This document shows positions 4,088 through 64,000 of a stretch of 64,000 nucleotides of DNA, one piece after another. Origin of the DNA: a virus (lineage: Duplodnaviria; Heunggongvirae; Uroviricota; Caudoviricetes); IMG/VR virus record IMGVR_UViG_2579778660_000001. One strand, 5' to 3'. The translations under genes and the position numbers were made by a program. Every line of letters starts with the position of its first letter. Position 1 is the stretch's first letter. Below the pieces are notes generated by a model that did no database searches, was not told the DNA's origin, and saw only the letters and a list, made by a program, of their open reading frames with translations.

Positions 4088-4697
4088 GAATAATTATGTT
4101 CTTCTTAATTATGATGAGTTAAACGAAAAGGGGCTGGCAAAACTCGTCAAAGAAATCAGCAAAGGTGGTTACAAGATAGCGAGGGTGATCCCTGCAAGTA
4201 ATGGCAGGAAGAAAGATGGGATCATGACGCGCACGTTTACCCTTATTGGTCTTGATGAACAGACAATGGAAGTTCAGGTTAACGATACCGGTGATATATC
4301 TGGGATCAAACTGAATGGTAAAACAGTACCGTTCAAGCCAGTAAAAACAATGTCGGCTTTGGGGCAATCTCTTGCGGCTTTATTTAATCGCGGAGCAACT
4401 TCTTTCCAGAAGTCATTAGCTCGAAAACTTGCTCGTGCAGCAAAAAATATTGATGACGAAAATAAGAAGCGGCAGGGAGTTAAATCCAACGCTCAGAAAT
4501 TAGCTGAAGCGAAAGAATCACGTGATGCACTCCGTGAAGATATCGCTAATGCTAACGACAAACTGTCTAAACTCCAGAGCAAGTCAGACAAAGTAATGCA
4601 AGATACGGGTAACGTTAAAGCTGCCTTGTCTCAGGAAGTAGCTAAGACACGTGCTCTTAAAGAAGAAATCGCGCGCCTGGAGGATGAGCATGATTAA
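4077..4697 (+). CDS. Hdf-like coiled-coil virion protein
   Basis: AAGGAG RBS 6 nt before ATG at 4077 (track start 4062 is less likely); Lys/Glu-rich coiled-coil C-terminus; sits immediately 5' of the DarA-like gene. Confidence 0.35.
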   Translation: MSNKNNYVLLNYDELNEKGLAKLVKEISKGGYKIARVIPASNGRKKDGIMTRTFTLIGLDEQTMEVQVNDTGDISGIKLNGKTVPFKPVKTMSALGQSLAALFNRGATSFQKSLARKLARAAKNIDDENKKRQGVKSNAQKLAEAKESRDALREDIANANDKLSKLQSKSDKVMQDTGNVKAALSQEVAKTRALKEEIARLEDEHD

Positions 4698-13932: not shown

Positions 13933-16900
13933 GTGAAAATAACATTCTCCATACCCTCTCAACCGTACCGCATAGCGGATTTTTTACGGTTTAGAGGGGG
14001 TAATCCTTTGGATAAACTACTTCATTCAATCAGTGAAGCTTCCAGCTTAGGCGAACTGATTGAAATTGTTAGTCGGTTGCATAAATTACGTGCTGTTGCG
14101 ACCTTTGGCGTTAAGAAAGTCGATGGTGTCAGCATTCAAAAAACACGGCGGGCAGCAAACAACGCCGCAGTAGAGCTTCTTAATTCCCTTCCGCCCGGCT
14201 TCGATGGGGCGAAATTAACTGACGAACAGCGTCAGATTCTTGCCGGGTATACCGGTGAAGGCGGCCTGACAGATGGTGAGGGCAGCCAATACGAATACTA
14301 CACGCCACAGTTTATGGCTGAAGGTATATGGGATCTGTTTGCTGACTACGGTATTGATGGCGGGCACGTACTGGAACCATCAGCGGGCACAGGTATTTTC
14401 CAGGAGACAAAACGACAGGGCATGATAATGACCAGCGCCGAACTGTCTCCGATTTCCGGTCGAATAAACCAGCTTTTGCACCCGGAAGACGATGTGAATA
14501 TCGGGGCGTTTGAGGCGCTGGCGGCGAAAGACGCAATGTATGATCACGCTGTTGGTAACGTACCGTTTGGTGAAGGGCGTTCCGGTGTCGCCGGGCTTGA
14601 TCCGGCATATGCAAACGAGAAGAACGTTGGCAATTACTTTGTGCTGCGCACGATCGACAAGGTTAAGCCTGGTGGGCTTATCGTATTGGTGGTGCCGAAT
14701 GGCATGACCGATGGTACGAAATATAAAAAATTGCGCGATAAAGTCAGCCGTAAAGCGGAATTTTTGGGCGCACATCGTATGCCTTCCGGTACGTTCAGCG
14801 AATCCGGTACAGATACCGTGGTGGACGTATGGGTATTGCGTAAACACCCGGAAACCTTCCTGGAGATGATCCCCGACACGGATGATTCAACACTCAAATC
14901 GGCAAACGTCCTTTGGGATACCTTCCTCAAAGGAAAATGGTTTACAACCGAAGGGAAGCGATTTGTTTACGGCGACATGGAACGTACCAGCTTCCGCAAT
15001 ACCCTGGTGGTGAAAAAGGACGGTCGTGTATCCAATGAGTCGATGAAAACCGCGCTATCTCGTCGCTTTGATAGTCGCATCAATTGGGATTTGCTCGGCG
15101 TAACTACTCAGGCATGGCAGGGCGCGAAAGTGGGCGATAAACGCCTAGTAGGCGGCATCTGGCATGAGTTTGATGGCCTGAAATGGGTCAAGGACACGAC
15201 AACCAAATCCTCCGCGCTTGATGTAAGTCGATATGGTGTTTCGACATTCGGTGATCTGCAAACAACGTTCCAATCAACAAACGGCATTCTGGCTCTGTCA
15301 TGGGGGCAGATATCCGCGATCGCTTCCGACTATCCATCGGTTATCAGTGATGAAGTAGCGGCAATGATTCGCTTTGCTGGGAAACAACGCGAAAAAGACC
15401 GTGAGCGCATTATGCGCGGTGCGCTGATCGGGCAACTTATCAATAAAGCGCTGGATAAGCGTAACCTTGGTGAAAACGTCGATGATGAACTGGCTGATGC
15501 CGCACGTCTGACGGCTGCCGAAGTTGCTAAATATGGCCCACCACACGCCATTAAGCTAAACGACATTACCGAAGCGGGCGCGAAGAACTGGCTGACATTC
15601 ACCGGGAACGTCAATCAGGACGGTGAAGCATCCGATCTGCTGTCCGGACGGCTTGATGTTAGCAAAGGGGCTGCTGGTATTGATTTCACTCGTCCGGAAC
15701 AGGTTGTGACACACCTTTTCAGCGATGTTGCCCTTAATCCTATCAATCTTGATGACTTCCGCGAGGCGTTTAAAGGCGAACTGCCAGAAGACGACGATCA
15801 AGCACTGGAATACCTGGCGAAATTCGACGATATCGCTATTGATGGATATGGTTGCCTGCTACCGATGGGCCGTGCCACTAGCGGTGATATTAAATCAAAA
15901 GTGGCACTGCTGGTGGGCTGGCGAGACGCGTCCACAGGAGAGCGGAAGGCCAACTTTGAGCGCCAGCTTTCAAAAATCGAAGAGAAACGCACGTTTACAC
16001 CGCTGAACAAAGTCACGGTAAACCTTAACGCACGGTGGTTGGATCGCCGCCTGATAAAAGAGTTCCTGGCAGAGCAGGGCTATGACGAGTTTAAGTATAC
16101 AGAACCCGACCTTAAGGTTGAGAACGGCATTCTGGTATCCCCGGACGATTACGAAGGTAAGGACGGGGTATTTACTGGCTACCAGCTACGAACCGTAAAC
16201 GGCAAAAACGGGAACGAGTTCAAGAAAGCGAATAACAAAGATGGCTTCCTGAATCAGCTTGAGAACTACCTGAACGGTGTTAAACCGCGCGGACAGAACG
16301 CTAACGAGTACCTGGACAAAATCGCCCAGCTTGAGACGAGTTTTAACGACTGGTTAAGAACTCACCCGCAGGCAGACCAGATCGCCCGCGATTATAACGA
16401 CGCCTTTAACGGTTATATTCCATTTACCCATTCAGACGCACCCCTGGGGCTTGAAGGCATCAGCGGGAAACGTATACCGCTTTCTTACCAGAACGAAGAA
16501 GTTCGTCGTCTGTCGGAAGATGGGCGCGGGATTATGGGATTCGGAACTGGTTTGGGTAAAACGACGACCGCGCTGGCACTGGAAGCCTATAACTTTGAAA
16601 CCGGGCGAACCAAACGTACCTGTATCGTTGTTCCAAAGGCCGTATACCAGAACTGGTATCACGAGGCACAGAGCTTCTACAGTGCAGATGCCTTCGCCAA
16701 TATGATGTTTATCGGTCTGGACGAAGTGCGCGATGGTGACGGAAATATTCAGACTGCCCCAGTGCTCGACCAGGACGGCACCCCGCGACTTGATAACGAC
16801 GGCAATCCGATCACCCGTAATGTTGTTAAAGAATCCGCCAGTGCCGTTATCGCTCAACGCATGAACATGATCCCATCGTCGAACTGGCGAACGGTCATCA

Positions 16901-19900
16901 TGACAAAAGAGCAGTTCGCATCTATCCCGTTGCGCGATGAAACCATCGGAGAAAACTCACAGCAGGCTGTCTTTAATGCCGCCGAAATGGGGCGTCTTGA
17001 CCTGGCGTCAGGCAAGCACCGTGATGCGCAGAAGAAGAACAAGATTAAGGACCAGGCCGCGAATACCGGTACAGCGAAGAAGCAGAATATCCCGTACTTT
17101 GAGGATATGAACTTCGATAGCGTAATTGCCGACGAAGGGCACAACTACCGCAACTCCTTTGGTGCCGGGCGTGAAGCGGGGCAACTGGCATATTTACCTA
17201 ATCCGGCGGTATCCAAAATGGCCCGTGACATGGCTGTAAAAGCTGCGTACATGATGAAACGTCACAATGGGCGCGGCGTCGTAATGCTGACAGCAACTCC
17301 GCTGGTTAATAGCCCTATTGACGCCTTCAACATGCTGTCAACGGTGATCCCTCAGCACGAGTGGATGCACATGGGGATTATTACCCCTGACGACTTTGTC
17401 CGAGTGTTCGGTAAAACAGCCACTGTTCAGGTCCAGAAAATTTCTGGCGAAGTGGAAGAGAAACAGGGGCTGGTGGGCTTCCAGAACCTTGATGGTCTGC
17501 GTGGCATTTTCCACCGCTGGACAACGCTTAAAACGGCTTCCGATGTTGGTGCAACGGTAAAAATCCCGGATATCGTCGAAAACACCTTGCAGATCCCAAT
17601 GACTCCAGAGCAGCAAGCAGCTTATGAAGAGCTTCGTAAACGCGCGCAGGAGTTAAGTCGTGGTGATGACGTCACTGTCGATGATGAAGGCAATATCACT
17701 CGCGGGAAACCGGATGATTTCATTTTCTCTATCATTCGCGACATGGATAAGGTCGCTATCGACCCGGATCTTTACGCCAGCGCTATCACATTCCAGTTCC
17801 CTGTAGAACTTACTGAACAGGTGAAGTCTATAGCTAATAACCTACCAAAAGTGGCTGGTGGGAAAGCGGCAGACGATGCAGAAGAAGCAGAGGAGGATGC
17901 GACCGGAGGCCTGGTCAGTACCCGTACCAGCAAGGTTGTAGCTACAACATTTAGTGAGCATCCAAATCACGTCGAATTGCGTGCCAGCATTGACCTGGAG
18001 GCTGAAATACTCAAGGCAATTGCTGATGCAGGCATCGACATGAAACAGGTGTCACACCCGATCCCGCCTAAGTATGCCGCACTTATCGAGAACCTTCGTG
18101 AAGGGCTTAAGAACGGTAAGCAAATTATCTTTATCGACGAGAAAGCCCAGCACCAGAAACTACGTCGCATCATTGCCAGTGCGTTGCAAATGCCAGAGCA
18201 GGAGATAGGCATTATCAATGCTACGACTGTTAGCCAGGCTGGTGGTGTTAAGCTGAAAAAGGTCAAAAAACCGACCGAACCGACGCCAAACAAAGACGGT
18301 GAATACAAAGAAGGCGCATGGGAAACCTACTACAGTAAACTGGCCCAATATGAGGATTATCTCTCTGCTAAAAATGATGCTGGCCTTGAGGGGATGGAAG
18401 GTATTGCTGCCGACTATAACGAAGGGCGCACGCAAATCATTATCTGTAACAAGAAAGCCGAAGTAGGTATCAACCTGCATATTGGAACGACCGATATTCA
18501 CCACCTGACACTACCCTGGACTCCTGCCAGTATCGACCAACGAAATGGGCGCGGTGCGCGCGTAGGTTCTCCGCAAGAGAAGGTTAATGTTCACTATTAT
18601 TGTGGCAAAGGCACATTCGATGACTTCCGTCTGGATACGCTTAAACGTAAGAAAGACTGGATCAAGATGGTGATGACCTCCGATATGTCAGAGATCGCCA
18701 ATGGTGATGCGGATGACGCTGATGAACGCGCCATTATGCTGGCGGCAAATCCGGAAGAACGACGCGCAATTATGGCTCGTCAGTCGAAAGAACGTGAGGA
18801 ACGCCTGCGACTTAAAGCGCAACGCGAAGCCAATAATGCTCTCGATAACTACCTGAAAGCGGCGAATGCTGCCGGGAAGGATATCGGCATGATGGAGGCA
18901 GAACTGAAAAGCGCGATGGAGCAGGCGCAACGATACCAGAGTGATCTGGATGGACTGATTAAGAGCGGCATCAACAAAAACGGACAGAAATATACGCTTT
19001 CAGCACTAAGCAAAGCTAAAAAAAGAGTGCGTGAATTGCGATTTGCAATCACCAGGGCGAAGGACGCGGATACTGTTATGAAACGCTCTCGTGGTGATGT
19101 GGAGCGTGCTATTAAGTCTGGTGTGCTGGATATCAGTATCGATGTTATTCAGAACCCGCAGGAGTATATGCGCACTGGCAAGAACATCCTGTTGCATAAA
19201 GGTAGTTACTACCGTGCAGTCATTGATGCTGAATACGAGACAACGGCGATTGTACGCGTGACACAAATTGAGGGCGAAAAAGCGCAATACACCTGCCGCG
19301 TCGCCTGGCTGGATAGAGCAAGTCGCAACTCTCGTTCTCCTGGCTCAACCATGACATTACCGTTTGACTCAGTGGTTGAAGCGGTAACATTTGAAGAGGG
19401 GGTGGCTGAATCACGAGAAATAGCGGCACGTGGTGTTCAAAGCCACCAGCTTTCAACCTCTCTTTCTCGCGATCAATTCTATGACGCTATTCGTAGCGGT
19501 GTTATGCGGGTAACTGGGAAAGATCGTGGCGGTTGGCAAGGAGCACCGGATGTAAACTATTGGGCTTATCGTAACGCCAATGGTCAGATTCAAATGGCCT
19601 TTACCTATGGCGGGATGATTGGTCAAAAAATTAGCGCATCTGGAAGTGACGAGATAGCACCTGAACAATGGATTTATCCTGATGTAAACGACGAAGCATT
19701 AAAACGCGAAGTCGCGAAAATCCAGACAGGTGATAACCCACTTCGTATTTCAGAGGCAGAAGGTTTTCTCCGTGCATTGTTTGGCTTCGATTATGAGCAA
19801 GGTATGGAAGCATGGGGCGCTCAGGCCACTATGGATGATGTGGTCAAGGCGTTCGATGGCTGGATGGCAGGGCGCGATCTCTCCGGGCGTTCACTTGAAA

Positions 19901-20850
19901 AAGTGACTCAGGAAGATGTCCGCAGCTTGTTCCGCAAGCCAAATGGAGAAGGCCTGGAAACGTACTGGCGAGGCGTGCTTTCTTTCCGCGATTTCCAGGG
20001 GCGCATGAAAGCCTTCACCAATGGTTCGGAGATTTCGCAGATGTTCGAACAACTGCGAACGTCCAAAATCATAACCAAAATTGAGAAAACACGCATGGCG
20101 CTAAATGCATGGCGTGATGCGCTGTTTGATCAGTACAAAATGCAAAGTGATGCAGATGGTTGGGCGTCACTTGCCTCGTTGGCAGATCAGTCAGTTTACA
20201 GTGCGCAACTAAGCATTTCTAATGCCGATAATCCGCTTGAAACATCTGCAACAGTCTGGATTAAAGCGGGGGCGTTAATTCATGCATTTGAGGATAAAAG
20301 CATTACCCGTGATGATTTCGCAGATGCAGATAGCTTGAATCGTCTTGTCGGGATGGCTATACGCCATGCTAACGCCTTAAAAGCGGGCGGGTATGTGGAA
20401 GAGTTGCCTGATGCTCTGAAATCTGCAACGTGGGATGACTTTGTGTCGCTTAAAAATAGTGGCGCTACGGAGTCAGAGATTGCTGAACGTCTTGCGGCGG
20501 CTAAGACTGAACGGGAAGAACAGGCTGATGCTGCTGAGAACAAGGCTGACGAGGCAGCAAATGATGATTACATTATCGTGGTAAACGATAAGCCTATTCG
20601 CGCCAAAGCACGTGTCCGCGGTCGCTGGTGGAGCGTAAGTGAAGACGCTGGTGCTGTTTATCTCATTGCAGATATGCCCGGATCTTCATCTATTCGCAAC
20701 GCAAAAGATGCCATCAAGAAAATCGGTGGGCGTTTCTGGAACTTCGAAGTTAACCCGGTTGCCGATGTGGACTTTGACCGTCCGGCCTGGATGGTATCGA
20801 CGCGCTATTCAATTGATGAAGTGCGTAAAATCATTGAAGCGGCGGCTTAA
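13933..20850 (+). CDS. DarB-like giant antirestriction protein: N6-adenine methyltransferase fused to an SF2 helicase, 2305 aa
   Basis: SAM-binding motif VLEPSAGTGIF and NPPY-like GNVPFG in the N-terminal part; Walker A GFGTGLGKTTTALA, DEAH-like VIADEGHNY and motif VI QRNGRGAR in the middle. Start codon uncertain (GTG at 13933 or TTG near 14006). Confidence 0.7.
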   Translation: MKITFSIPSQPYRIADFLRFRGGNPLDKLLHSISEASSLGELIEIVSRLHKLRAVATFGVKKVDGVSIQKTRRAANNAAVELLNSLPPGFDGAKLTDEQRQILAGYTGEGGLTDGEGSQYEYYTPQFMAEGIWDLFADYGIDGGHVLEPSAGTGIFQETKRQGMIMTSAELSPISGRINQLLHPEDDVNIGAFEALAAKDAMYDHAVGNVPFGEGRSGVAGLDPAYANEKNVGNYFVLRTIDKVKPGGLIVLVVPNGMTDGTKYKKLRDKVSRKAEFLGAHRMPSGTFSESGTDTVVDVWVLRKHPETFLEMIPDTDDSTLKSANVLWDTFLKGKWFTTEGKRFVYGDMERTSFRNTLVVKKDGRVSNESMKTALSRRFDSRINWDLLGVTTQAWQGAKVGDKRLVGGIWHEFDGLKWVKDTTTKSSALDVSRYGVSTFGDLQTTFQSTNGILALSWGQISAIASDYPSVISDEVAAMIRFAGKQREKDRERIMRGALIGQLINKALDKRNLGENVDDELADAARLTAAEVAKYGPPHAIKLNDITEAGAKNWLTFTGNVNQDGEASDLLSGRLDVSKGAAGIDFTRPEQVVTHLFSDVALNPINLDDFREAFKGELPEDDDQALEYLAKFDDIAIDGYGCLLPMGRATSGDIKSKVALLVGWRDASTGERKANFERQLSKIEEKRTFTPLNKVTVNLNARWLDRRLIKEFLAEQGYDEFKYTEPDLKVENGILVSPDDYEGKDGVFTGYQLRTVNGKNGNEFKKANNKDGFLNQLENYLNGVKPRGQNANEYLDKIAQLETSFNDWLRTHPQADQIARDYNDAFNGYIPFTHSDAPLGLEGISGKRIPLSYQNEEVRRLSEDGRGIMGFGTGLGKTTTALALEAYNFETGRTKRTCIVVPKAVYQNWYHEAQSFYSADAFANMMFIGLDEVRDGDGNIQTAPVLDQDGTPRLDNDGNPITRNVVKESASAVIAQRMNMIPSSNWRTVIMTKEQFASIPLRDETIGENSQQAVFNAAEMGRLDLASGKHRDAQKKNKIKDQAANTGTAKKQNIPYFEDMNFDSVIADEGHNYRNSFGAGREAGQLAYLPNPAVSKMARDMAVKAAYMMKRHNGRGVVMLTATPLVNSPIDAFNMLSTVIPQHEWMHMGIITPDDFVRVFGKTATVQVQKISGEVEEKQGLVGFQNLDGLRGIFHRWTTLKTASDVGATVKIPDIVENTLQIPMTPEQQAAYEELRKRAQELSRGDDVTVDDEGNITRGKPDDFIFSIIRDMDKVAIDPDLYASAITFQFPVELTEQVKSIANNLPKVAGGKAADDAEEAEEDATGGLVSTRTSKVVATTFSEHPNHVELRASIDLEAEILKAIADAGIDMKQVSHPIPPKYAALIENLREGLKNGKQIIFIDEKAQHQKLRRIIASALQMPEQEIGIINATTVSQAGGVKLKKVKKPTEPTPNKDGEYKEGAWETYYSKLAQYEDYLSAKNDAGLEGMEGIAADYNEGRTQIIICNKKAEVGINLHIGTTDIHHLTLPWTPASIDQRNGRGARVGSPQEKVNVHYYCGKGTFDDFRLDTLKRKKDWIKMVMTSDMSEIANGDADDADERAIMLAANPEERRAIMARQSKEREERLRLKAQREANNALDNYLKAANAAGKDIGMMEAELKSAMEQAQRYQSDLDGLIKSGINKNGQKYTLSALSKAKKRVRELRFAITRAKDADTVMKRSRGDVERAIKSGVLDISIDVIQNPQEYMRTGKNILLHKGSYYRAVIDAEYETTAIVRVTQIEGEKAQYTCRVAWLDRASRNSRSPGSTMTLPFDSVVEAVTFEEGVAESREIAARGVQSHQLSTSLSRDQFYDAIRSGVMRVTGKDRGGWQGAPDVNYWAYRNANGQIQMAFTYGGMIGQKISASGSDEIAPEQWIYPDVNDEALKREVAKIQTGDNPLRISEAEGFLRALFGFDYEQGMEAWGAQATMDDVVKAFDGWMAGRDLSGRSLEKVTQEDVRSLFRKPNGEGLETYWRGVLSFRDFQGRMKAFTNGSEISQMFEQLRTSKIITKIEKTRMALNAWRDALFDQYKMQSDADGWASLASLADQSVYSAQLSISNADNPLETSATVWIKAGALIHAFEDKSITRDDFADADSLNRLVGMAIRHANALKAGGYVEELPDALKSATWDDFVSLKNSGATESEIAERLAAAKTEREEQADAAENKADEAANDDYIIVVNDKPIRAKARVRGRWWSVSEDAGAVYLIADMPGSSSIRNAKDAIKKIGGRFWNFEVNPVADVDFDRPAWMVSTRYSIDEVRKIIEAAA

Positions 20851-29059: not shown

Positions 29060-29452
29060 ATGGAACAAATCAGCAGCGCAGAAATTGCGGATATCATGAT
29101 TAGGGCTGACTGCTATCTGACAGTCACTGAAATTACCATTCTCGCCAAAGAAAAATACCCTCATCTCCATGTTTCACGGGTAAGTGTAACTAACATCATT
29201 CGTCATTTTGTTCGTTCAAGCAGGGCAATCTGTGAGCTTGATGATCGCGTTTACCCACGAAAATACTGGTTGCATGGCCTGAACGGATATCAGTTCAAGG
29301 TGCGTGGGCGAACCCCTGAATACGGCAGTTTACTGGTTAAAAACTGTAGCAGGAAATCAGTCGAACAGGCGCGAAAAGAGCAACGAGAGCTGGTGGACAT
29401 GGCGAATAAGCTGTGGAATGCCGCCGTTAAAAAGCGTGGTGTTGCTTTATGA
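29060..29452 (+). CDS. hypothetical basic protein, possibly a late-promoter activator (Lpa-like position)
   Basis: Immediately 5' of pacA and overlapping its start; functional call by position only. Confidence 0.3.
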   Translation: MEQISSAEIADIMIRADCYLTVTEITILAKEKYPHLHVSRVSVTNIIRHFVRSSRAICELDDRVYPRKYWLHGLNGYQFKVRGRTPEYGSLLVKNCSRKSVEQARKEQRELVDMANKLWNAAVKKRGVAL

Positions 29453-30813
29453 GTCTGGTTAATTGGGAGGAGCACCGCGCCCGCTTTATAGCGTTGCGTG
29501 AAGAAAAAGGGATCACTGTAAAGGAATACTGTGAGGAGCATGGCCTTAGCTTCAATACAGCCAGAAAGCATCTCAATATGAAAAAAAATGAGGTGCGGTC
29601 GCAGGTAAAGACAACAAAAAAAAGCACCAAATCACCTGAAAAAAAACGGGCAGGAAGAGCAACAAAAAAGCAGGAAGAGGGTGCAGGAAAAACAAAATTT
29701 ACAGAAATTGACAATTCGCAGGGCGCAGGTTCTTTCCGAAGTATGCCGAGAAAGAAAACTTCGGATCATGAAAATAATTCAAATAATAACAATGAGATAA
29801 AAGAATCCGTCAGGAGATCATTACGCGAAAAAATGGCGAAAATGATCCCCGAAGAAGATAAAAGCGCCCCAAAAATTGAGGGATCTTCTGCAATGATCCC
29901 TGACGGTGCTGTGCAGCGTGCCACATTGCCAACTACGAATGTAGCTCGCGATATGATGAAGAACGGCGCAGAAGAACACCTGCGGTTAGCAATTCAAATG
30001 GCGCAAGAGCGCGCACTTCAGTATCAAAGCATTGTTGATCAGGAGGCCGAACGTCTACAGGCGGAAATAGACACCCTGGGCGATAAAGAGCCAGAAGGAA
30101 TGCACCCTGGGCAGCGCCTTCTCGGTCTAATCAGTGACGCGGCCTACTACATGAATGATTTTATCAGTAGGTTGGCAGCTATTTATCAGTCCGAACAAAA
30201 GCTGCGACAGGGGGATGAAAAGCTTCGTCAGAGCGCTCGCCAGCAAGCATTCAAAGAGGCTGAGGCCAGAGAAAAACTCGAATTAGCACGCCTACAGGCC
30301 GAACAGCGTGGCAAAGAGATTGAATATCGCATTGGCGCTGACGCACGCGCAGCCAGAGTTATCGCCGCCGCTATACGTATGCGTGAGCGCGAGGAACTGG
30401 ATGATATCGGTGTTGCTGAATACATCGAGCGCCAGGGTGTCAGCGTCCCGGCTATCCTCGCGGCGCGCGCGGCGAAAGCTATCACTCTTCTCGAACCACC
30501 TGTTTCTGACGTCAATGATGTTGATGATGAACAGCTGGACAAAGAGGCAAGGGAGTTTGCAACGCTTCAGGCTAACCATCCGCAATGGCTGGCAGAGCGC
30601 CGGGCGGATGTGGCAACCATTGTTGAAGAATTGGGGTGCGGAGATTACGACCGCAATGGCGAGCGTAAAGCTGGAGAATTCGAGGCCAACGACGAAGAGC
30701 TGGATATTGACCCTTCGGCAACGGCTGAAATTTACGGTGATTATGATGCATCTGATGCAGGGTATGACGCCGGAGATGATGATATCGCGATAGAACCGCC
30801 GGAGGATGATTAA
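29449..30813 (+). CDS. pacA: terminase small subunit / pac-recognition protein (PacA-like), 454 aa
   Basis: ATGA overlap with the upstream gene; basic N-terminal region and highly acidic C-terminus; directly precedes the terminase ATPase; GATC-rich segment inside the gene. Confidence 0.6.
   Translation: MSLVNWEEHRARFIALREEKGITVKEYCEEHGLSFNTARKHLNMKKNEVRSQVKTTKKSTKSPEKKRAGRATKKQEEGAGKTKFTEIDNSQGAGSFRSMPRKKTSDHENNSNNNNEIKESVRRSLREKMAKMIPEEDKSAPKIEGSSAMIPDGAVQRATLPTTNVARDMMKNGAEEHLRLAIQMAQERALQYQSIVDQEAERLQAEIDTLGDKEPEGMHPGQRLLGLISDAAYYMNDFISRLAAIYQSEQKLRQGDEKLRQSARQQAFKEAEAREKLELARLQAEQRGKEIEYRIGADARAARVIAAAIRMREREELDDIGVAEYIERQGVSVPAILAARAAKAITLLEPPVSDVNDVDDEQLDKEAREFATLQANHPQWLAERRADVATIVEELGCGDYDRNGERKAGEFEANDEELDIDPSATAEIYGDYDASDAGYDAGDDDIAIEPPEDD
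29760..29900 (+). promoter_or_regulatory. candidate pac cleavage region (GATC cluster)
   Basis: Five GATC sites (29764, 29816, 29844, 29882, 29895) within about 135 bp inside pacA, as hexamers of the form NGATCN; P1 pac is a Dam-methylated hexamer cluster inside pacA. Confidence 0.35.
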
Positions 30814-32349: not shown

Positions 32350-33387
32350 TTACCAGAGCTTTGCGGCGCGCTGCGTTTGGGGGAATGTGTATCCGTAACG
32401 TTCTTCGATTGCTTTGCCGTATTTTTTACGCGCTTCATTCAGTTTGATGCCGGTCAGGTCGTCTCCAGAGGCCATCATTACGTCTAACAATTCCAGATCC
32501 ATTTTATCCAGCCTTGCCATTGCTTCACGCGATGTACGAATCTTACGTTCAATGATATGGCGAATAGCCGGATCGGCATCCTCCAGCATCTTAGCTGATT
32601 TCTGCTTAAGGTTTTCGTTGCGGATATCGATGTTCCTTAAGATATACGACTTCGCAACGTAGCTTGGCTGATGTTTTTCCAGGTCACGAACACGATATAA
32701 GCTAAAGTCGCCGAGAAGGCTGCAAGGCACCGATTCGACGCCAGAATAAATTGTAATGCTACGGCGTTCACCAACATTATTGACAACGGGGATCGTTGTC
32801 TTCGGTAGTTTTGCGAAAACGAATGCGCCATGTGCGCCAACTCTAAAGCGAGAAAGGGCATTGCTGCCTTCGATGTTTGTTGTCAGCACAACATCTGTAT
32901 ATGCCTCTTTACGCGCCCGGTAGACCTCGCCTTCAGGCTCAGCTTCAAAGAAGCGCTGTTCTTCTTCAAGAGCACCTACGATTTGAGAAAAAACCCTATT
33001 TTTCAGGCTTTTCTTTATGATTTTGTCGTATTTTTTGAGCAATTGTTCACGTGTAAATGTACGTGTTGTTGTAGCGCTTTGCACAACAACATGCGTGCTT
33101 TGATTGGTGTCCTCAATGATGAATGGGATCGGAGAATATACAGACTCAACAATGTTAGACGCTTTGCCGTCAGCATTACGGCACAAGTCAACAAAGGCTT
33201 TCCATTCTGCGAGGCACTTTTCAGCTTCTTCTAGTACATTTTGGTCGTGTGTTAGTGCAACGTGGCGGAATTCCTCGCCAGCATAACTGGTATCATGGAA
33301 AACAGAGTTTGCGACCACCAGCTCTTTCCACCGTTCAGCGGTTTGCAGGAACCGTTTGTACTCTTTCTCGATCGACTTCTTACTCAT
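32350..33387 (-). CDS. candidate C1-type immunity repressor by position (c1 slot between pacB and the rox-dre unit), 345 aa
   Basis: Position matches c1 in the P1-family pac-c1-lox arrangement; an operator-like motif lies in its own upstream region; no motif-level identification possible. Confidence 0.4.
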   Translation of the reverse strand: MSKKSIEKEYKRFLQTAERWKELVVANSVFHDTSYAGEEFRHVALTHDQNVLEEAEKCLAEWKAFVDLCRNADGKASNIVESVYSPIPFIIEDTNQSTHVVVQSATTTRTFTREQLLKKYDKIIKKSLKNRVFSQIVGALEEEQRFFEAEPEGEVYRARKEAYTDVVLTTNIEGSNALSRFRVGAHGAFVFAKLPKTTIPVVNNVGERRSITIYSGVESVPCSLLGDFSLYRVRDLEKHQPSYVAKSYILRNIDIRNENLKQKSAKMLEDADPAIRHIIERKIRTSREAMARLDKMDLELLDVMMASGDDLTGIKLNEARKKYGKAIEERYGYTFPQTQRAAKLW

Positions 33388-57980: not shown

Positions 57981-58784
57981 TTGAGGATGCTTATGGGCCG
58001 TTTTGACGAATGGTTTGCTGACGATGCAAACCTGGCAAGTAAGGAGTCAGAACATGACAGCACGCAGAGAGAAACGCCAGCGCCGATTGAAGCGAATGCA
58101 GGAGGCGCGCCGGAACATGGCAATACCGGTTCGGATTCATTCAGCATTCTGGAAGAGCAACCCGCCGCCAAAGCTGATAGCCATGATAATTTTGCTGATA
58201 GCAACGGTGGCCTTACTCCGGATGCTGGCGAATCAGATATAGCCATACTTCCACCTTCCCTGGCTGGCAGAGAACCAACTCCACAGCTAAAAGCACGCTA
58301 TAACGGGCATAAAGCCTTTAACGACCAAATCCGCGCAGACTGGATGCTGATTATTGAATCCAGCCCAGACGCGTTTCAGGCTCTCTTATATCGACCAGAT
58401 GTTGGCACATATGGGGTAGTCAGCGACGAAACAGGAGAAGAGTCATTCACTGAACTGGATAACAACCAACGCGAACTGACTTACCAGGAACCTGAAATCG
58501 TTTATGTGCTGGATAACCCTGACGGACGTGACTCTTTCCATGCGATTGACGCAGACGGTGAGCAGGATGGCTTAACCGATGATGTTCTGATTCTGCGTAT
58601 TGCAGCAAATAACGTCCCCGTCGGCTCAATTCTTGAATGGAATGAAGAGATGGTAAACGGCGTAGCCCGCCGCTGGTGGTACGTGCACCGTATTTTTAGC
58701 TACGGCACACAGCATGTTGGTTCGCTTTACTACTGCATACCTGCCAGGAATTTTGATACGACTCAAAACGGAGTGATCGAATGA
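57981..58784 (+). CDS. hypothetical acidic structural protein, 267 aa
   Basis: First gene of a four-gene operon that ends with a baseplate-spike-like protein. Confidence 0.45.
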   Translation: MRMLMGRFDEWFADDANLASKESEHDSTQRETPAPIEANAGGAPEHGNTGSDSFSILEEQPAAKADSHDNFADSNGGLTPDAGESDIAILPPSLAGREPTPQLKARYNGHKAFNDQIRADWMLIIESSPDAFQALLYRPDVGTYGVVSDETGEESFTELDNNQRELTYQEPEIVYVLDNPDGRDSFHAIDADGEQDGLTDDVLILRIAANNVPVGSILEWNEEMVNGVARRWWYVHRIFSYGTQHVGSLYYCIPARNFDTTQNGVIE

Positions 58785-59548
58785 CTTCAAATAAAACCCT
58801 CCTGGCGCGAACAGGTGAATGGCAAACCTCACGCACAGGAAAATTCCAGACCACGGGCTTTGAAAACGTGGATAACGCGTTTGCGACGCTAATCAGCAAC
58901 ATTTTTTCTGATATCTTACTGGTGGCCCCCGCGCCGGAAGAAAAACGCTTTGCGTCATTCCTGAATCGTCCACCAGCAGAGCGTGTCTATGTGGCCCGTT
59001 TCGACAATGCGATCGAGTTTCTTAAAGCAGTTCGTCGCGCAAATGCCGGGCAAGGGAGAAAACCTGAAAACCAGAACATTAACCGGGATGCTCTCCCCCT
59101 GGTCAATATCTCACGCACTATGGATATCAATTATATCAACGATGATCAGCAGATTGACCGCAAAAAAGTAGCCAGTTTTTGCGAACCAGATACCGGAATG
59201 CCTTTAGCAGAACTGGAATACACCCAGGCCATTCTGACGTATGACGTTACGTTAATGGCAACTGATAAAGCGACCATGAGTCTGATGTGTAATTCGCTGG
59301 GCGCACGGCTTCGCCTGATGACAGGTACACAATTTGAAGCAACCACTCACCTTGTTCGTGTCCCGGTCCCGCTGATTTGCTCGATACAGGATGCCAAAGA
59401 AGTCGGCTTTACGGATGTTTCAGCACCAATTGGAGAAGAGCGTATTTATGCCACACAAGCGCCGATAAGTGTGATTGCAGACGTGATCACAGCATGGGAG
59501 TTGGACGCAAAACGTATTATTACCGAAACCTCGATATCTATGGGGTGA
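58781..59548 (+). CDS. putative baseplate/tail component, 255 aa
   Basis: ATGA overlap; operon context. Confidence 0.4.
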   Translation: MTSNKTLLARTGEWQTSRTGKFQTTGFENVDNAFATLISNIFSDILLVAPAPEEKRFASFLNRPPAERVYVARFDNAIEFLKAVRRANAGQGRKPENQNINRDALPLVNISRTMDINYINDDQQIDRKKVASFCEPDTGMPLAELEYTQAILTYDVTLMATDKATMSLMCNSLGARLRLMTGTQFEATTHLVRVPVPLICSIQDAKEVGFTDVSAPIGEERIYATQAPISVIADVITAWELDAKRIITETSISMG

Positions 59549-59551
59549 TAA

Positions 59552-60532
59552 GTGGCCCAGGAGTTACAACAATATTTTCTACAGTCAGTGCTCATTAACG
59601 ATAACAAAGTGCCACGAGACTGGATTTTTACCGCAGTATATGTAGAAAAAACCAGCCTCAAAGCCCCTTTGCTAAAACTGGAAATTCATGACGCTACCGG
59701 CACCGTAATTGATGACTGGAAAGCCAAATACGGTGCATCGCTGGTGGCTGAAATGGGCGATCCAAACGGTAATGCAGGCACTTTTAAAACAGATTTCTTT
59801 GTTACGTCTGCAATGCTGGCTGGTGATGTTGTTACCGTTATTGCTGTCAGTGAAGACGTGCGCAGGTTTAAGATCCCCTCCCCGCGCACAAATTTACATA
59901 CCAACAAAACACCAGACGCTATATTCAAGGCATATTCCGGCAAACTTAAAATTACCAGCAGCGTGCTAAAACGCGCAGTTACATATCATCTGAATGCTGG
60001 TGACAAACCGTCAAAAATGCTTTCGGAGATAGCGCGAGACAAAGGTGCATTGTGTTGGGTATGTCGGGGGGAATTTAACTTTTACACCCTGGCTGATCTG
60101 ATGAAGCAAACGCCATCATTTACCTACGAGGGGAATAACCCTAAAGCAGAATACACTTTGTCCAAAATGCGCCTACTCCAACAGGAACATGCGACAACAG
60201 CAAAGAATCAATATCGTTTTGTTGGGTATTCCATGACCGATGGCTACGTCGAATATGGCGATAGCTCACTCCCAGTGCGTTATATATCCGACTCTGATAT
60301 GGAAACTCTTCGCAATATGCAGCTGTCTCTCGTCCCCAAAATGGATATAGAAGTCGCAGGCAATCCTGATATAAAACCGGGGATGGTAATAGAGATTATC
60401 GTATACCGCTATGACCAGGAAAACCGCATTGATGAATCAATGCCCCGTAAGCTGATAGTAAAAAATGTTGCGCACTTTGAGGACCGCGTAGGCTACACAA
60501 CACGAATGATATTGGGAGTGCCTAACAAATGA
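59552..60532 (+). CDS. putative baseplate/tail component, 326 aa
   Basis: Operon context. Confidence 0.4.
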   Translation: MAQELQQYFLQSVLINDNKVPRDWIFTAVYVEKTSLKAPLLKLEIHDATGTVIDDWKAKYGASLVAEMGDPNGNAGTFKTDFFVTSAMLAGDVVTVIAVSEDVRRFKIPSPRTNLHTNKTPDAIFKAYSGKLKITSSVLKRAVTYHLNAGDKPSKMLSEIARDKGALCWVCRGEFNFYTLADLMKQTPSFTYEGNNPKAEYTLSKMRLLQQEHATTAKNQYRFVGYSMTDGYVEYGDSSLPVRYISDSDMETLRNMQLSLVPKMDIEVAGNPDIKPGMVIEIIVYRYDQENRIDESMPRKLIVKNVAHFEDRVGYTTRMILGVPNK

Positions 60533-61182
60533 AGCGTAGAGCGCAAATTGTTGGAACTGTGCACCCGGCAGGGCTTATGCGTGCTCAAGTCCGTGTTTTA
60601 CCTGACTGGAATGGCGTTCCTGATGACGATCTACCCTGGGCGGAATACCAGTTACCCATCGGGAACGCTTTTGTACCTACAGTCAAAGGTGACCTGGTCT
60701 GGGTAGAGTTTCCTTATTTAGATGTTAACGGTCGAATAGACACCAGACGCCCAATGATAGTTGGTGCCGCTCAGGATGCGCCAGGCGGAGTTCCAAACGT
60801 CGCGCCGGAGGCGTCAGGCAATGGTAGCGGCTGGACGCCGCCTGAAGTAGACGGAGCGCCTCCCCGCCCGCAATTTTCGGCGACAAAAGATTTCGTTATT
60901 CACCGCAATAATGTGCTAGAAGTGCGAACGGCTGGCGGTGGATATGAAATAGCCAATACGGCAGCAGGTTCAAGGATTGGCATGAATGAGTCCGGGCAGA
61001 TATATATCATTGGTCCGGCTGATGTAATCGTGAATGCAGGAGGGAGTGTTAACGTCAAATCAGCCAACAACATCAATGTTAATGGGGAAAATATTGCTGT
61101 CACCGCTAACGGGGACATAGCTTTCAAGGCAGGGGGAACCTTTCAGGCCACTGCTGGCAACTTCGATTTCAAGAAAGGATAG
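60529..61182 (+). CDS. baseplate central spike-like protein (gpV-like)
   Basis: N-terminal OB-like region and Gly-rich beta-helix-like C-terminus (...GGYEIANTAAGSRIGMNESGQIYIIGPADVIVNAGGSVNVKSANNINVNGENIAVTANGDIAFKAGG). Confidence 0.45.
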   Translation: MKRRAQIVGTVHPAGLMRAQVRVLPDWNGVPDDDLPWAEYQLPIGNAFVPTVKGDLVWVEFPYLDVNGRIDTRRPMIVGAAQDAPGGVPNVAPEASGNGSGWTPPEVDGAPPRPQFSATKDFVIHRNNVLEVRTAGGGYEIANTAAGSRIGMNESGQIYIIGPADVIVNAGGSVNVKSANNINVNGENIAVTANGDIAFKAGGTFQATAGNFDFKKG

Positions 61183-61212
61183 AAAATGCACCCATTTGTG
61201 TTAGATAATTAA

Positions 61213-61229
61213 CGCGTATTTTCTAACAT
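61213..61229 (-). promoter_or_regulatory. operator-like site ATGTTAGAAAATAC upstream of rdgC-dmt
   Basis: Motif copy about 15 bp before the rdgC start. Confidence 0.5.
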
Positions 61230-61241
61230 AAATGGTGAGAA

Positions 61242-62147
61242 ATGAGATCAGTCGCTTTCAAAAATATCTTCATCTATCGTCTTTCACGCGAAGTTAACTG
61301 GGATACCGCAGAAGTAAATGCAGCCCTTAGCAAGTTTGTGTTTACCCCATGCGGTTCTCAGGATATGGCTAAAGCTGGTTGGACCCCAATTCTTGGCGAC
61401 AACCTCACCCATGAATACCAGGGTTTTCTTCTGATGCAGCATAAACGAGAGGAAAAAATCCTGCCTTCTCAAGTACTCAAAGAAGAGTTACAGAAAAAAA
61501 TCCTGAAACTTGAAGAAGAGCAAGACAGAAAGCTGAAGAAGACCGAAAAAGATTCGCTGAAGGATGAAGTGCTTCACTCTCTTCTTCCTCGCGCTTTCAC
61601 GAGAAAATCAGTCGCTAAAATCCTGATAGACCGAAGCAATCATCTGGTTTTTGTCGAGGCCAGCAGTGCTAAAAAAGCAGAGGATCAGCTGGCTTTGTTA
61701 CGGAAATCGCTTGGCAGCTTGCCCGTTGTCCCCTTCTCTCCGAAAGACCCATTAGAACTGACCATCACTGGCTGGATTAAAGATGGCTTCCCGAACGGTT
61801 TCCGTGCTGGTGAGGAAGCGACTTTAAAAGCATTGCTTGATGATGGCGGCGCGGTCCGCTGCAAAAAAGTGGACCTGCTATCCGACGAGATCATGAGTCA
61901 TATAGAAGCTGGTAAGGTTGCAACCACAGTTGCGGTTAACTGGCAAGACCGTGCATTTTTCAGACTGAATGACGATATGAGTATCAAGGCTTTGTCGTTC
62001 AGCGACGAATTGTACGACCAAAACGACGATATTGATCGAGAGGATGTAGCGCAACGATTTGACGCTGACTTTATCCTGTTTACTGCTGAATTATCAGCCA
62101 TGTTCACTTCGCTAGTGGAGGCCGTTGGTGGTGAAGCAGAACGTTAA
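61242..62147 (+). CDS. rdgC: RdgC recombination-associated protein
   Basis: Long colinear match to E. coli RdgC as recalled ([74 protein letters not shown]). Confidence 0.85.
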
Positions 62148-64000
62148 CCTTAGATATGGTTCTGTTTGCAGTGGAATTGAAGCAGCGAGCATTGCCTGGG
62201 AACCGTTGGGTATGCGTCCGGCGTGGTTTGCTGAAATCGAGCCTTTTCCATCTGCCGTTCTTGCGCACCGCTGGCCCCATGTCGCCAACCTTGGCGATAT
62301 GACAAAACTTGCCAAAAAAGTCCTGGCTGGGGAAATCGAATCCCCTGATGTGCTCGTCGGGGGAACACCTTGTCAGGCATTCAGTATCGCGGGATTACGT
62401 GGTGGGCTTGATGATGAGCGTGGCGCGCTAACTTTAAAGTATGTGGAGCTTGCAAATGCAATTGACGACAAACGGGCTGAGTCATTTCTCAAACCAGCCG
62501 TTATCGTCTGGGAAAATGTCCCAGGAGTCTTGTCATCGGCAGATAACGCCTTCGGATGTTTCCTTGCCGGATTGGCTGGAGAAGATGCGCCATTCGAACC
62601 AGGTGCTCGACCTGAATCACGAAAAAGTAACGCGTTCTGGCGGTGGGATGTCAAAACCAGTTGCCATGCTCCAAAGTGGCCGCAGTGTGGTTGTATTTAT
62701 GGACCGCAGCGAAAAGTGGCCTGGAGAATCCTTGATGCCCAATACTTCGGAGTGGCACAACGACGCCGACGCGTGTTTGTTGTCGCAAGTGCTCGAACAG
62801 ACCTCGATCCCGCAACGATACTTTTTGAGTTCGAAGGCGTGCGCCGGAATATTGCGCCGAGCCGAAAAAAGAAGGAAATCGCTTCCGCCATTATTGCAAA
62901 TGGCGCTGCAATCAGTGGCGAAAGTCTAAATCCATGCCTACACGCTGACATGCCCCCCGGTATGAAATCGACGAAAGCCGTAAACGCTTTCAGGATGGCG
63001 GCATTTGGGGAATATATTGACGATGAAACCGCATCGACAGTAAAGGCAAGAGACTTTAAAGATGCCACTGACCTTGCCGTTTTTAGCAGCACAGGAGCAG
63101 GTTTTTGGTCAGAGGGGCATGGTACATTGCGGGCGCGTGAGCAAGAAAGCCATGAGCATCTTGTTACATTAGCTTTTCCTGAGCATATGAGCGGTACACA
63201 ACATGCTGCAACTAAGAATACTTCACCATCTCTAATGGCTCAAAATCCAACAGCCGTTTGCTATGAAGCAAGAAACGCAAAAGTAGCTGTTCGCCGTCTT
63301 ACCCCTGTCGAATGTGAAAGGCTGCAAGGTTTTCCTGATGGGCATACGTTGATCCCTACGGAAAAGCGTAAAACAATTTCCTCAGATGAACTGGCATACC
63401 TTCGCAATCACTATCCAGATTTAAGCGAAGAAGAGGCCGCGATGCTCGCTGCTGACGGGCCGCGTTACAAAGCGATTGGCAACAGCATGGCAGTTCCTGT
63501 TATGCAATGGATTGGGTGTTGCATTCTTGCGACTGTGGAAGCTAAACAGCCAAAAACAATAAATACCATTACCTACACAAGAATACTCCGGACTCCGGAT
63601 GAATATGAGCGTCCGATCTTCAAATGGGTAGGAGGTAAATTCTCAGAGTTACCTACAGTGCTTGAGCATCTACCACACGGCAAGCGGTTAATAGAACCAT
63701 TCGTTGGTGGCGGTTCCGTATTTACGAATGCAGGATTTCGCCACAACCTGCTTAATGATATTAACGGTGACCTGATTAACTTCTATCAGACATTGCAGCG
63801 AGAAGGACATTCGCTCGTCACGCTGTCATATAGTTTTTTCCAAAATTACAACAACGCTGACGCTTACCTCGAAGTGCGTGAGGCATTTAACAGAGGAAAG
63901 TATGACCAGCTACATCATGCTGCCGCCTTTTTGTACCTTAATCGGCACTGTTTTAATGGCGTAACGCGGTACAACCAAAATGGCGAGTTCAACGTGGGGT
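62128..64000 (+). CDS. dmt: fused DNA methyltransferase (Dmt-like): C5-cytosine MTase domain followed by Dam-type N6-adenine MTase domain; 3' partial, runs off the window
   Basis: Continuous frame with no stop from 62116 to the end. C5-MTase motifs in order: VCSGIEAAS (I), [12 protein letters not shown] (IV), [10 protein letters not shown] (VI), [10 protein letters not shown] (VIII), [18 protein letters not shown] (IX), [10 protein letters not shown] (X); then Dam motifs [10 protein letters not shown] and EPFVGGGSV. Start likely GTG 62128 (GGAGG 6 nt upstream), overlapping the rdgC end. Absent from the ORF track because there is no stop inside the window. Confidence 0.75.

Follow-up and report, generated by a model that had tools for sequence, protein, structure and literature searches.

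Does the reading frame that runs off the right-hand edge of this phage sequence encode a methyltransferase of two specificities, and is such a gene new? The window, by which we mean the whole stretch of 64,000 nucleotides analysed here (IMG/VR record IMGVR_UViG_2579778660_000001), ends inside that frame. We put the probability at about 90% that positions 62131-64000 hold codons 1-623 of dmt, a gene of 762 codons that stands second in an rdgC(hrdC)-dmt operon, and likewise that this gene is the orthologue of dmt of phage P1, already known from P1-family plasmid prophages. Because the frame is the beginning of a long-known gene, the finding is real but ordinary. Its main value is a correction: the gene was missing from the track of open reading frames, not from biology.

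An open frame cut by the window edge

The first-pass annotation had reported a single open frame from 62116 to the window edge, and a reading-frame scan of the window confirms it. The frame comprises 628 codons without a stop, directly after a TAG at 62113-62115, and a run of this length would be expected by chance, given the window composition, with P ~3.5e-15. The explanation offered for its absence from the track, that no stop codon falls within the window, also holds, since the program that lists open reading frames omits those running off its source; the lack of dmt in the track is a window-edge artefact and not a missed gene. The features at its 5' end are:

61242-62147, plus strand: rdgC/hrdC homologue of 301 aa, first gene of the operon (PF04381 RdgC, 8.2e-102, 296 of 298 profile positions)
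62117-62121, plus strand: Shine-Dalgarno-like GGAGG, read from the sequence, spaced 6 nt from GTG 62128 and 9 nt from GTG 62131, both downstream
62131-64000, plus strand: dmt coding sequence, cut by the window edge; alternative in-frame starts are TTG 62125 and GTG 62128

The gene had been described as overlapping the end of rdgC and probably starting at GTG 62128. The overlap stands: the frame enters an RdgC-family gene, which also matches PHROG 724 at 1.6e-126; near-identical plasmids carry it under the name rdgC, and the D6 annotation describes it as "similar to P1 hrdC". The start codon needs revision. GTG 62128 does exist inside rdgC with GGAGG at the reported distance, but homologues are annotated from GTG 62131, which is the PGAP start in near-identical plasmids, aligns with the annotated start of P1 dmt and appears the likelier start here. 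Both codons lie inside rdgC, whose stop is at 62145-62147, and from 62131 the two genes overlap by 17 nt. All amino-acid numbers of dmt are counted from GTG 62131.

The window lacks the last 139 dmt codons, the DPPY motif among them, and the completeness of the gene therefore rests on near-identical contigs. One of these (contig L007) matches positions 58200-64000 without gaps at 99.7% DNA identity. It carries a 762-aa gene that begins at the equivalent of GTG 62131, includes DPPY and ends at a TAA stop, followed by a hairpin terminator and a convergent glnS; in this contig the 3' extension suggested earlier as a check leads to a closed gene. A 762-aa coding sequence in plasmid p13ZX28-90 is 99% identical to the window dmt over 623 aa. 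More widely, dmt is annotated in hundreds of plasmids in RefSeq, and the uninterrupted 762-codon frame is kept in more than 100 clusters at 90% identity.

A chance open frame, or a sequencing artefact such as two genes joined by a frameshift error, could be invoked insofar as the window stops before any stop codon and the frame is not closed on the window itself. It is already refuted by the improbability of the stop-free run, by strong profile matches for both halves in the same frame, and by the occurrence of this fused frame in hundreds of independent assemblies as well as in P1 and P7. We give this explanation practically no credence.

A C5-cytosine methyltransferase joined to a Dam-family domain

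The translation reads as one polypeptide, ~85 kDa at full length, with a C5 domain (~aa 1-460), a linker of ~35 aa and a Dam-family domain (~aa 494-762). The features of the two halves, with the individual motifs located by a motif search of the translation, are:

62131-63510, plus strand: C5-cytosine DNA methyltransferase domain, ~aa 1-460, motifs I, IV, VI, VIII, IX and X intact, catalytic Cys81 in TPCQ
62164-62181, plus strand: C5 motif I, VCSGIE
62365-62385, plus strand: C5 motif IV, TPCQAFS
62509-62526, plus strand: C5 motif VI, WENVPG
62758-62778, plus strand: C5 motif VIII, QRRRRVF (QxRxR)
62866-63291, plus strand: variable region between motifs VIII and IX, ~aa 246-387, presumed target-recognition domain, P1 type
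63292-63339, plus strand: C5 motif IX
63478-63501, plus strand: C5 motif X, GNSMAVPV
63610-64000, plus strand: Dam-family N6-adenine methyltransferase domain, N-terminal 130 residues (aa 494-623), D6 type, DPPY beyond the window
63622-63639, plus strand: Dam motif KWVGGK
63694-63720, plus strand: Dam motif EPFVGGGSV (AdoMet-binding FxGxG)

The C5 motifs (with PCQ in motif IV and ENV in motif VI) and then the Dam N-terminal motifs were all found in the order in which they had been reported. The six C5 motifs follow one another canonically over 62164-63501 and are invariant across P1, P7 and the D6-type relatives. A profile search for both domains, also proposed as a check, supports the assignment: the window translation matches PF00145 at 4e-37 (128.8 bits, cut-off 22) and PF02086 at 1.7e-29. 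It scores 121.9 bits with the C5-methyltransferase superfamily model TIGR00675 (cut-off 100.65), and M.HhaI matches the C5 domain at 4e-9. TIGR00571 (cut-off 114.85) gives 136.4 bits on the window protein of 623 codons and 245.9 bits on a full-length homologue.

The gene had been called a Dcm-Dam fusion. A C5-methyltransferase is indeed fused to a Dam-family domain in one frame, but the C5 half is not an orthologue of Dcm: the NF007772 model (E. coli Dcm, CCWGG) has a cut-off of 710 bits, and the window protein reached 24.1 bits and the full-length homologue 22.7 bits. What E. coli Dcm and the C5 half have in common are the generic motifs of the C5-methyltransferase fold. Judged by these scores, dmt (C5-methyltransferase/Dam fusion) is the proper label and "Dcm-Dam" a misnomer. 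Since the C5 half fails the Dcm model, the restriction check proposed with EcoRII/BstNI presumes a specificity without support.

The Dam half reaches 237 bits where the equivalog model of E. coli Dam requires 441, so it belongs to the family but is distinct from the host's own enzyme. The full-length homologue is colinear with E. coli Dam (PDB 2g1p, 1.4e-57) and keeps the FxGxG, DPPY, K9, N120 and R124 positions. DPPY lies at aa 672-675 in p13ZX28-90, past the window end, and occurs as well in two proteins (P0001 and P0002) that differ from the window protein by 2-3 residues over 623 aa; it is expected in this element's own copy. Residues of E. coli Dam that reportedly contact GATC are K9, Y119, N120, L122, R124, P134 and Y138. 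In the full-length homologue, the residues aligned to K9, N120, R124 and Y138 are identical, while Y119 is replaced by F, L122 by V and P134 by G. P1 Dmt also has F at the Y119 position and G at the P134 position, and according to its GenBank note it methylates adenine in GATC. The dN/dS comparison of the Dam part with P1 gave no value, the synonymous sites being saturated.

Comparison with P1, D6 and P7

The window backbone appears to be that of a D6-like P1-family phage-plasmid of Escherichia coli, with a PacA 98.4% identical to that of D6 and syntenic tail genes. In E. coli and Salmonella, resistance genes are commonly carried by such phage-plasmids.

In P1 (NC_005856), dmt (formerly dam) occupies 66412-68676, encodes 754 aa and is annotated as a bifunctional DNA methyltransferase; hrdC lies at 65510-66415, and the operator Odmt and promoter Pdmt are upstream. 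P1 Dmt has the same order of C5-methyltransferase and Dam, and single BLASTP alignments give amino-acid identities of 86.5% over 617 aligned window residues and, when the full-length homologue is compared, of 84.5% over 755 aa. In both elements an RdgC-family gene stands directly upstream, the start of dmt overlaps its end, and a repressor-operator-like site precedes the operon. Since this arrangement matches P1 hrdC-dmt, the first-pass annotation had re-derived a known gene. DNA identity to P1 is 93-99% for the C5 part but only 46-73% for the Dam half and rdgC, which are of D6 type. The window further differs from P1 in lacking uhr between operator and rdgC, in its longer overlap (4 nt in P1), in its operator sequence and in its neighbourhood of tail/baseplate genes upstream and glnS downstream, the latter known from the 99.7%-identical contig.

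The corresponding D6 genes orf65-orf64-orf63 encode an RdgC homologue, a small putative cytosine methylase (226 aa) and a separate Dam (301 aa). Backbone and upstream tail genes are common to the window and D6, and so are the 5' part of rdgC (93-98%), the four codons that open dmt (VKQN) and the Dam domain, whose DNA is 97-100% identical to orf63. In contrast to D6, where methylase and Dam are two separate genes, the window has a C5 module of P1 type that continues in frame into Dam. The orf64 product has no BLASTP match to the window C5 domain and no match in Pfam, and its sole match is PHROG 757, "DNA methyltransferase".

Two junctions delimit the exchanged module, read from BLAST match ends and from a 100-nt identity profile against P1 and D6:

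62148-62154, no strand: 5' mosaic junction, D6-type upstream (rdgC and the first codons, VKQN) and P1-type downstream
63516-63588, no strand: 3' mosaic junction and inter-domain linker, DNA neither P1-like nor D6-like

At the 5' junction the D6 BLAST match stops at 62147 and the P1 megablast match begins at 62155; at the 3' junction the P1 match stops at 63515 and the D6 match restarts at 63589. The DNA between the last two is 49-72% identical to P1 and 25-72% to D6, and its peptide loosely resembles the N-terminus of the Dam that D6 encodes as a gene of its own. By these alignments the allele is a recombinant, with a P1-type C5 module placed between D6-type rdgC and D6-type Dam, and the module takes the slot of the unrelated small methyltransferase orf64 of D6.

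Phage P7 offers a further variant. Its Dam (672 aa, "hypothetical bifunctional DNA methyltransferase") is fused in the same way, and the catalytic core of its C5 part is almost identical to that of the window. The stretch from motif VIII to motif IX, however, is a different and shorter one, and the Dam half is of P1 type.

The control region upstream of rdgC

Two features lie ahead of the operon:

61180-61209, plus strand: weak sigma-70-like promoter candidate, TAGAAA, 18-nt spacer, GATAAT, 9 of 12 consensus positions, overlapping the left operator arm
61192-61235, no strand: operator-like palindrome, two 18-nt arms CCATTTGTGTTAGATAAT / ATTTTCTAACATAAATGG with an 8-nt gap

The operator-like site noted previously corresponds to the palindrome, an inverted repeat with 89% complementarity, but not to a P1-type C1 operator. 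The P1 C1 operator consensus ATTGCTCTAATAAATTT, with up to 3 mismatches, has 0 matches in the 64-kb window, which means that no operator sequence of P1 type governs the operon; a different palindrome recurs. Its half-site ATTTRTGTTAGAWAAT is found in 13 copies in the window against 2.6 expected (none of 100 shuffles reached 13), each lying between genes or just at the 5' edge of an open reading frame. Copies precede the lpa, c1 (32350-33387, minus strand) and ref homologues as well as the rdgC-dmt operon, and the P1 record has annotated C1 operators ahead of lpa, c1 and hrdC-dmt. The 13-copy set is probably made up of D6-type C1 operators, and can readily be taken as the candidate set of operators through which D6-type immunity would act. 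Within it, 61192-61235 is probably a bivalent operator for a D6-type C1 repressor and the positional equivalent of P1 Odmt (Op68).

Promoter-like sites occur in the region at chance level (2 against 2.2 expected), and 61180-61209 is therefore only a candidate. Scans for promoters and terminators around rdgC and dmt likewise gave matches at chance level.

Is the C5 half active?

Literature searches returned no relevant report on 5mC activity or specificity of Dmt, and the GenBank notes of P1 and P7 hedge the C5 activity with "perhaps". The C5 half may be dead or a functionally irrelevant relic, the protein working only as a phage Dam. In the literature found, the documented activity of P1 Dmt is Dam only, and NCBI names the fused protein simply "Dam family". 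Moreover, D6 manages with its separate Dam, and some P1-like phages have split or truncated versions, such as a protein of 473 aa with the C5 part only (P0120). Against a relic speak the six intact motifs, including the PCQ cysteine, ENV and QxRxR, and the pattern of substitution. Purifying selection acts on the C5 half: its dN/dS (omega) against P1 is 0.17, and it is low in the variable region too, where 9 synonymous and 5 non-synonymous changes give 0.15.

Exchange of the variable region argues in the same direction. In C5-methyltransferases generally, the region between motifs VIII and IX is credited with target recognition. Across the family alignment this segment takes at least four unrelated or length-variant forms (the P1/window type, the short P7 form, a 718-aa type and an 870-aa type), set in a flanking core that hardly varies; within the family it behaves as a swappable cassette. 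A core kept across P1, P7 and D6-type backbones around an exchanged variable region is the pattern expected under selection on specificity, and we regard a relic C5 half as unlikely.

A second possibility is that separate polypeptides are also, or mainly, made, with a Dam-only product arising from an internal promoter and start, in which case the fusion would matter less. A late promoter, LPdam2, is predicted within the gene in the P7 annotation, and at 63374 the window agrees with 16 positions of its 19-mer. Met438, an in-frame ATG at 63442, has GAGG 9 nt upstream, and D6 and some P1-like phages encode the halves separately. However, LPdam2 is itself a prediction and imperfectly conserved, no other start with a ribosome-binding site was found in the linker, and the full frame stays uninterrupted in the clusters described above. 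This alternative seems to us quite improbable.

C5 and Dam-type methyltransferases are common components of restriction-modification systems, and Dmt could in principle be the modification half of one. Its neighbours are rdgC and, in the near-identical contig, the convergent glnS, with no adjacent endonuclease gene, and its P1 counterpart is an orphan enzyme. The window methyltransferase is likewise an orphan, which leaves a role in restriction-modification very improbable.

A further reading, to which we give not quite even odds, is an active C5 half whose specificity is re-programmed by exchange of cassettes, either the VIII-IX forms or even the whole C5 module, which is swapped against unrelated small methyltransferases. 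This would give each lineage its own 5mC pattern as a tunable anti-restriction coat, with Dam co-expressed by virtue of the fusion. On this view, the allele in the window, with its C5 module of P1 type inside an operon of D6 type, would be a product of such an exchange.

Proposed function and the pac region

Coordinated control of modification and recombination had been suggested for this locus. Here dmt overlaps rdgC behind an operator-like palindrome, much as in P1 hrdC-dmt; control by a repressor is what we infer from P1 biology and this anatomy. In a lysogen, a C1-type repressor bound to the palindrome would keep rdgC-dmt off. Upon induction or infection the two genes would be co-transcribed, and translation of dmt would begin inside the last rdgC codons. 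The Dam domain would then methylate GATC on replicating phage DNA, which would make pac-site cleavage and other Dam-dependent steps independent of the host Dam. The C5 domain, for its part, would methylate a sequence set by its variable region and probably shield progeny DNA from restriction in new hosts.

The relevance to Dam-dependent pac cleavage claimed in the first-pass annotation is established for P1, where reviews citing Sternberg & Coulby 1990 describe a role of the Dam activity of Dmt (PMC12707154; PMC11437467). A CRISPRi screen in a Dam+ host scored neither half of P1 dmt as essential (PMC10695390), which makes any role a conditional one. In the present element the connection is more modest and consists of one feature:

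29764-29898, no strand: five clustered GATC sites within the 5' portion of the pacA homologue (29449-30813), candidate Dam-sensitive pac region

In P1, pac spans +195 to +376 of pacA. Arrays of the P1-like hexamer TGATCR do not form a cluster of at least 4 within 200 nt anywhere in the window. The five-site group is the sole cluster of at least 5 GATC within 200 nt in the window, with a probability of 0.18 for such a cluster anywhere in it, which is not significant alone. All five sites are conserved in D6, and the cluster is a possible substrate of the Dam domain.

The gene at the window edge is dmt

The window ends within dmt of a P1-family phage-plasmid, a textbook gene of this family that is cut here by the window edge; the remaining interest lies in the specificity of its C5 half, the cassette-like variability of that half and the D6-type operator set. 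A TAG codon at 62113-62115 precedes the frame, which opens at 62116 and stays free of stops for 628 codons, up to the window edge (chance probability ~3.5e-15 from the window base composition). Its translation carries C5-cytosine methyltransferase motifs and Dam signatures in canonical order.

Motifs in the translation of the 62116-64000 frame
62164-62181, C5 motif I, VCSGIE
62365-62385, C5 motif IV, TPCQAFS
62509-62526, C5 motif VI, WENVPG
62758-62778, C5 motif VIII, QRRRRVF
63292-63339, C5 motif IX
63478-63501, C5 motif X, GNSMAVPV
63622-63639, Dam signature KWVGGK
63694-63720, Dam signature EPFVGGGSV

Profile searches place PF00145 (4e-37) and PF02086 (1.7e-29) in this one frame, and RdgC (PF04381, 8e-102) in the upstream ORF at 61242-62147. 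The first-pass annotation, which had proposed an uninterrupted frame with this motif series and a profile search for both methyltransferase domains, was correct in its observation and essentially right in its interpretation. It had also ascribed the absence of dmt from the ORF track to the window edge, which agrees with an ORF lister that omits ORFs running off the source. Other frames within dmt hold ORFs of 93-162 aa (62441-62929, +; 62697-63092, -; 62373-62654, -), each contained wholly in the gene; most likely these are spurious, and a track without the real gene could be misread because of them. The proposed start, GTG at 62128, and a GGAGG at 62117-62121 are present as placed, but the frame also offers TTG 62125 and GTG 62131, and the gene on the near-identical contig L007 (WUIY01000006.1) starts at the equivalent of 62131.

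Window positions 62155-63515 match P1 dmt at 95.7% identity (megablast), and the products align in a single stretch of 617 residues at 86.5% identity. P1 dmt (754 aa) is annotated as a bifunctional DNA methyltransferase and its translation likewise has the C5 domain first and Dam second; the P7 counterpart is annotated in like manner. The same fused architecture occurs in more than 100 clusters at 90% identity, most of them named "Dam family site-specific DNA-(adenine-N6)-methyltransferase". Three related methyltransferases (P0017, P0044, P0114) bear the NCBI name "multidrug DMT transporter permease", evidently a mix-up arising from the gene name.

A database search returned no record identical to the window, but L007, 99.7% identical without gaps to 58200-64000, supplies the stop sought by extension: its dmt encodes 762 aa and ends in TAA. 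The window therefore lacks 139 codons, including DPPY, found at aa 672-675 of the homologue on the near-identical plasmid p13ZX28-90. Over the 623 Dmt residues in the window, the two closest proteins differ at only 2-3 positions. In L007, a GC-rich hairpin with a T run follows dmt, and then convergent glnS. In near-identical elements this full-length glutaminyl-tRNA synthetase gene lies just past the 3' limit of the window (L007:6338-7999; L001:7269-8930), sharing a terminator region with dmt as in D6.

A P1-type module in a D6-like backbone

The backbone of the element is D6-like rather than P1 proper. D6 and E. coli plasmids of ~90-95 kb match the upstream tail and baseplate genes as well as rdgC and the Dam half. 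The PacA proteins of the window and D6 share 98.4% identity, and the gene order lpa-pacA-pacB-c1-dre is that of the D6 immC record. DNA identity in 100-nt steps is 93-99% to P1 only between ~62142 and 63441, and 46-73% elsewhere. Identity to D6 starts at 93-98% over the initial 400 nt of rdgC, falls to 64-80% for the remainder of that gene, and reaches 97-100% from 63642 onward, in the Dam half; between rdgC and Dam the two are unalignable. There D6 holds orf64 (226 aa), followed by a separately initiated Dam. The orf64 product does not resemble the C5 domain of the window in sequence, has no Pfam match, and falls in a PHROG labelled "DNA methyltransferase".

Mosaic junctions
62148-62154, 5' junction, D6-type to P1-type
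63516-63588, 3' junction, P1-type to D6-type

This distribution, P1-like only in C5 and D6-like in rdgC and Dam, shows the allele to be a recombinant: a P1-type C5 module has been inserted in frame, with rdgC before it and Dam after it both of the D6 type. The rdgC gene (61242-62147), itself mosaic relative to D6, is 97-100% identical to that of p13ZX28-90 along its whole length.

The C5 half is probably active

With 120-122 bits, the C5 half exceeds the cut-off of the generic C5 model TIGR00675 (100.65), but at 23-24 bits it falls far below that of the E. coli Dcm model (710). The name Dcm is therefore wrong for it, and there is no ground for taking CCWGG as its target. No endonuclease gene adjoins dmt in the window or in near-identical records, so the enzyme is an orphan.

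No report of C5 activity of Dmt was found in the literature that we could read, and both halves of P1 dmt were dispensable in a Dam+ host in a CRISPRi screen (PMC10695390). We consider a relic less likely than an active C5 enzyme, since the catalytic motifs are all intact in the window product, and the differences from P1 in this half (38.5 synonymous, 22.5 non-synonymous) give an omega of 0.17, similar in core and variable region. Moreover, when P1, P7 and D6-type elements are aligned, hardly any variation is seen in the core (motifs I-VIII and IX-X), while the VIII-IX segment takes at least four forms in the family, including those of the related proteins P0097 (718 aa) and P0094 (870 aa) and of P7 Dam (672 aa, L004:2486-4504). 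A nearly invariant core around an exchanged segment is how a target-recognition cassette behaves when selection acts on it. In the 870-aa form the variable region seems to be extended and may be composite.

Another Dmt relative, P0093 (960 aa, from a Logan assembly), is interrupted precisely at the PCQ catalytic cysteine by a Hint domain (PF13403; …GGTP|CFTAGH…VVHN|CQAFS…), an insertion that resembles an intein placed in the active site of the C5 half.

A putative C1 operator ahead of rdgC-dmt

In P1, the C1 operator Odmt (Op68) and promoter Pdmt are annotated in GenBank ahead of uhr-hrdC-dmt. Nowhere in the 64-kb window does the P1 C1-operator consensus occur. The operator-like site reported before rdgC gains support from an inverted repeat and from its half-site, ATTTRTGTTAGAWAAT (16 nt), which occurs 13 times against 2.6 expected, a count reached in 0 of 100 shuffles.

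Operator-like features
61192-61209 / 61218-61235, inverted repeat, 18-nt arms 8 nt apart, just upstream of rdgC
7016, 12435, 21756, 22799, 28971, 33405, 34818, 50733/50757, 53327, 53374, 61194/61218, copies of ATTTRTGTTAGAWAAT

Every copy is intergenic or at the 5' edge of a gene, and two occurrences, before the ref homologue (50733/50757) and before rdgC (61194/61218), are inverted pairs with 8-nt spacing. Copies also precede the lpa (28971) and c1 (33405) homologues and a pmgS-like gene (22799). In P1, C1 operators are annotated ahead of lpa, c1 and hrdC-dmt; P1 also has one ahead of ref. Given this enrichment and placement and the P1 operator positions, we infer that the palindrome at 61192-61235 is a putative bivalent operator bound by a D6-type C1 repressor, whose operator set the 13 copies probably form. 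The sole promoter-like match near rdgC (61180-61209) is at chance level.

The Dam half, packaging and anti-restriction

TIGR00571 (cut-off 114.85 bits) scores 136 bits with the truncated window protein and 246 bits with a full-length homologue, which is colinear with E. coli Dam (1.4e-57). Among the E. coli Dam residues compared, chosen from the Dam-DNA structures, K9, N120, R124 and Y138 are identical in this homologue; three other listed positions carry substitutions that are conservative or common to P1 Dmt.

According to passages in PMC12707154 and PMC11437467 citing Sternberg & Coulby 1990, P1 pac cleavage requires GATC methylation, from host Dam or Dmt.

Packaging and anti-restriction features
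29764-29898, five GATC sites in 135 nt, inside the pacA homologue (29449-30813)
4651-6615, 7066-8463 and 13933-20850, Dar anti-restriction homologues

The only cluster of at least five GATC in the window lies 316-450 nt into pacA, comparable to P1 pac (+195 to +376), and has all five sites conserved in D6; its spacing is less tight than in P1, with its 4+3 hexamer array. On its own the cluster does not reach significance (P = 0.18), and we regard it as a candidate Dam-sensitive packaging site, a lead rather than a result. The Dar homologues comprise DarA (PF18788/PF18789), a ddrB-like ParB-domain protein (PF18763) and a 2305-aa SNF2-domain protein, presumably DarB-like; the element therefore carries several anti-restriction functions besides Dmt.
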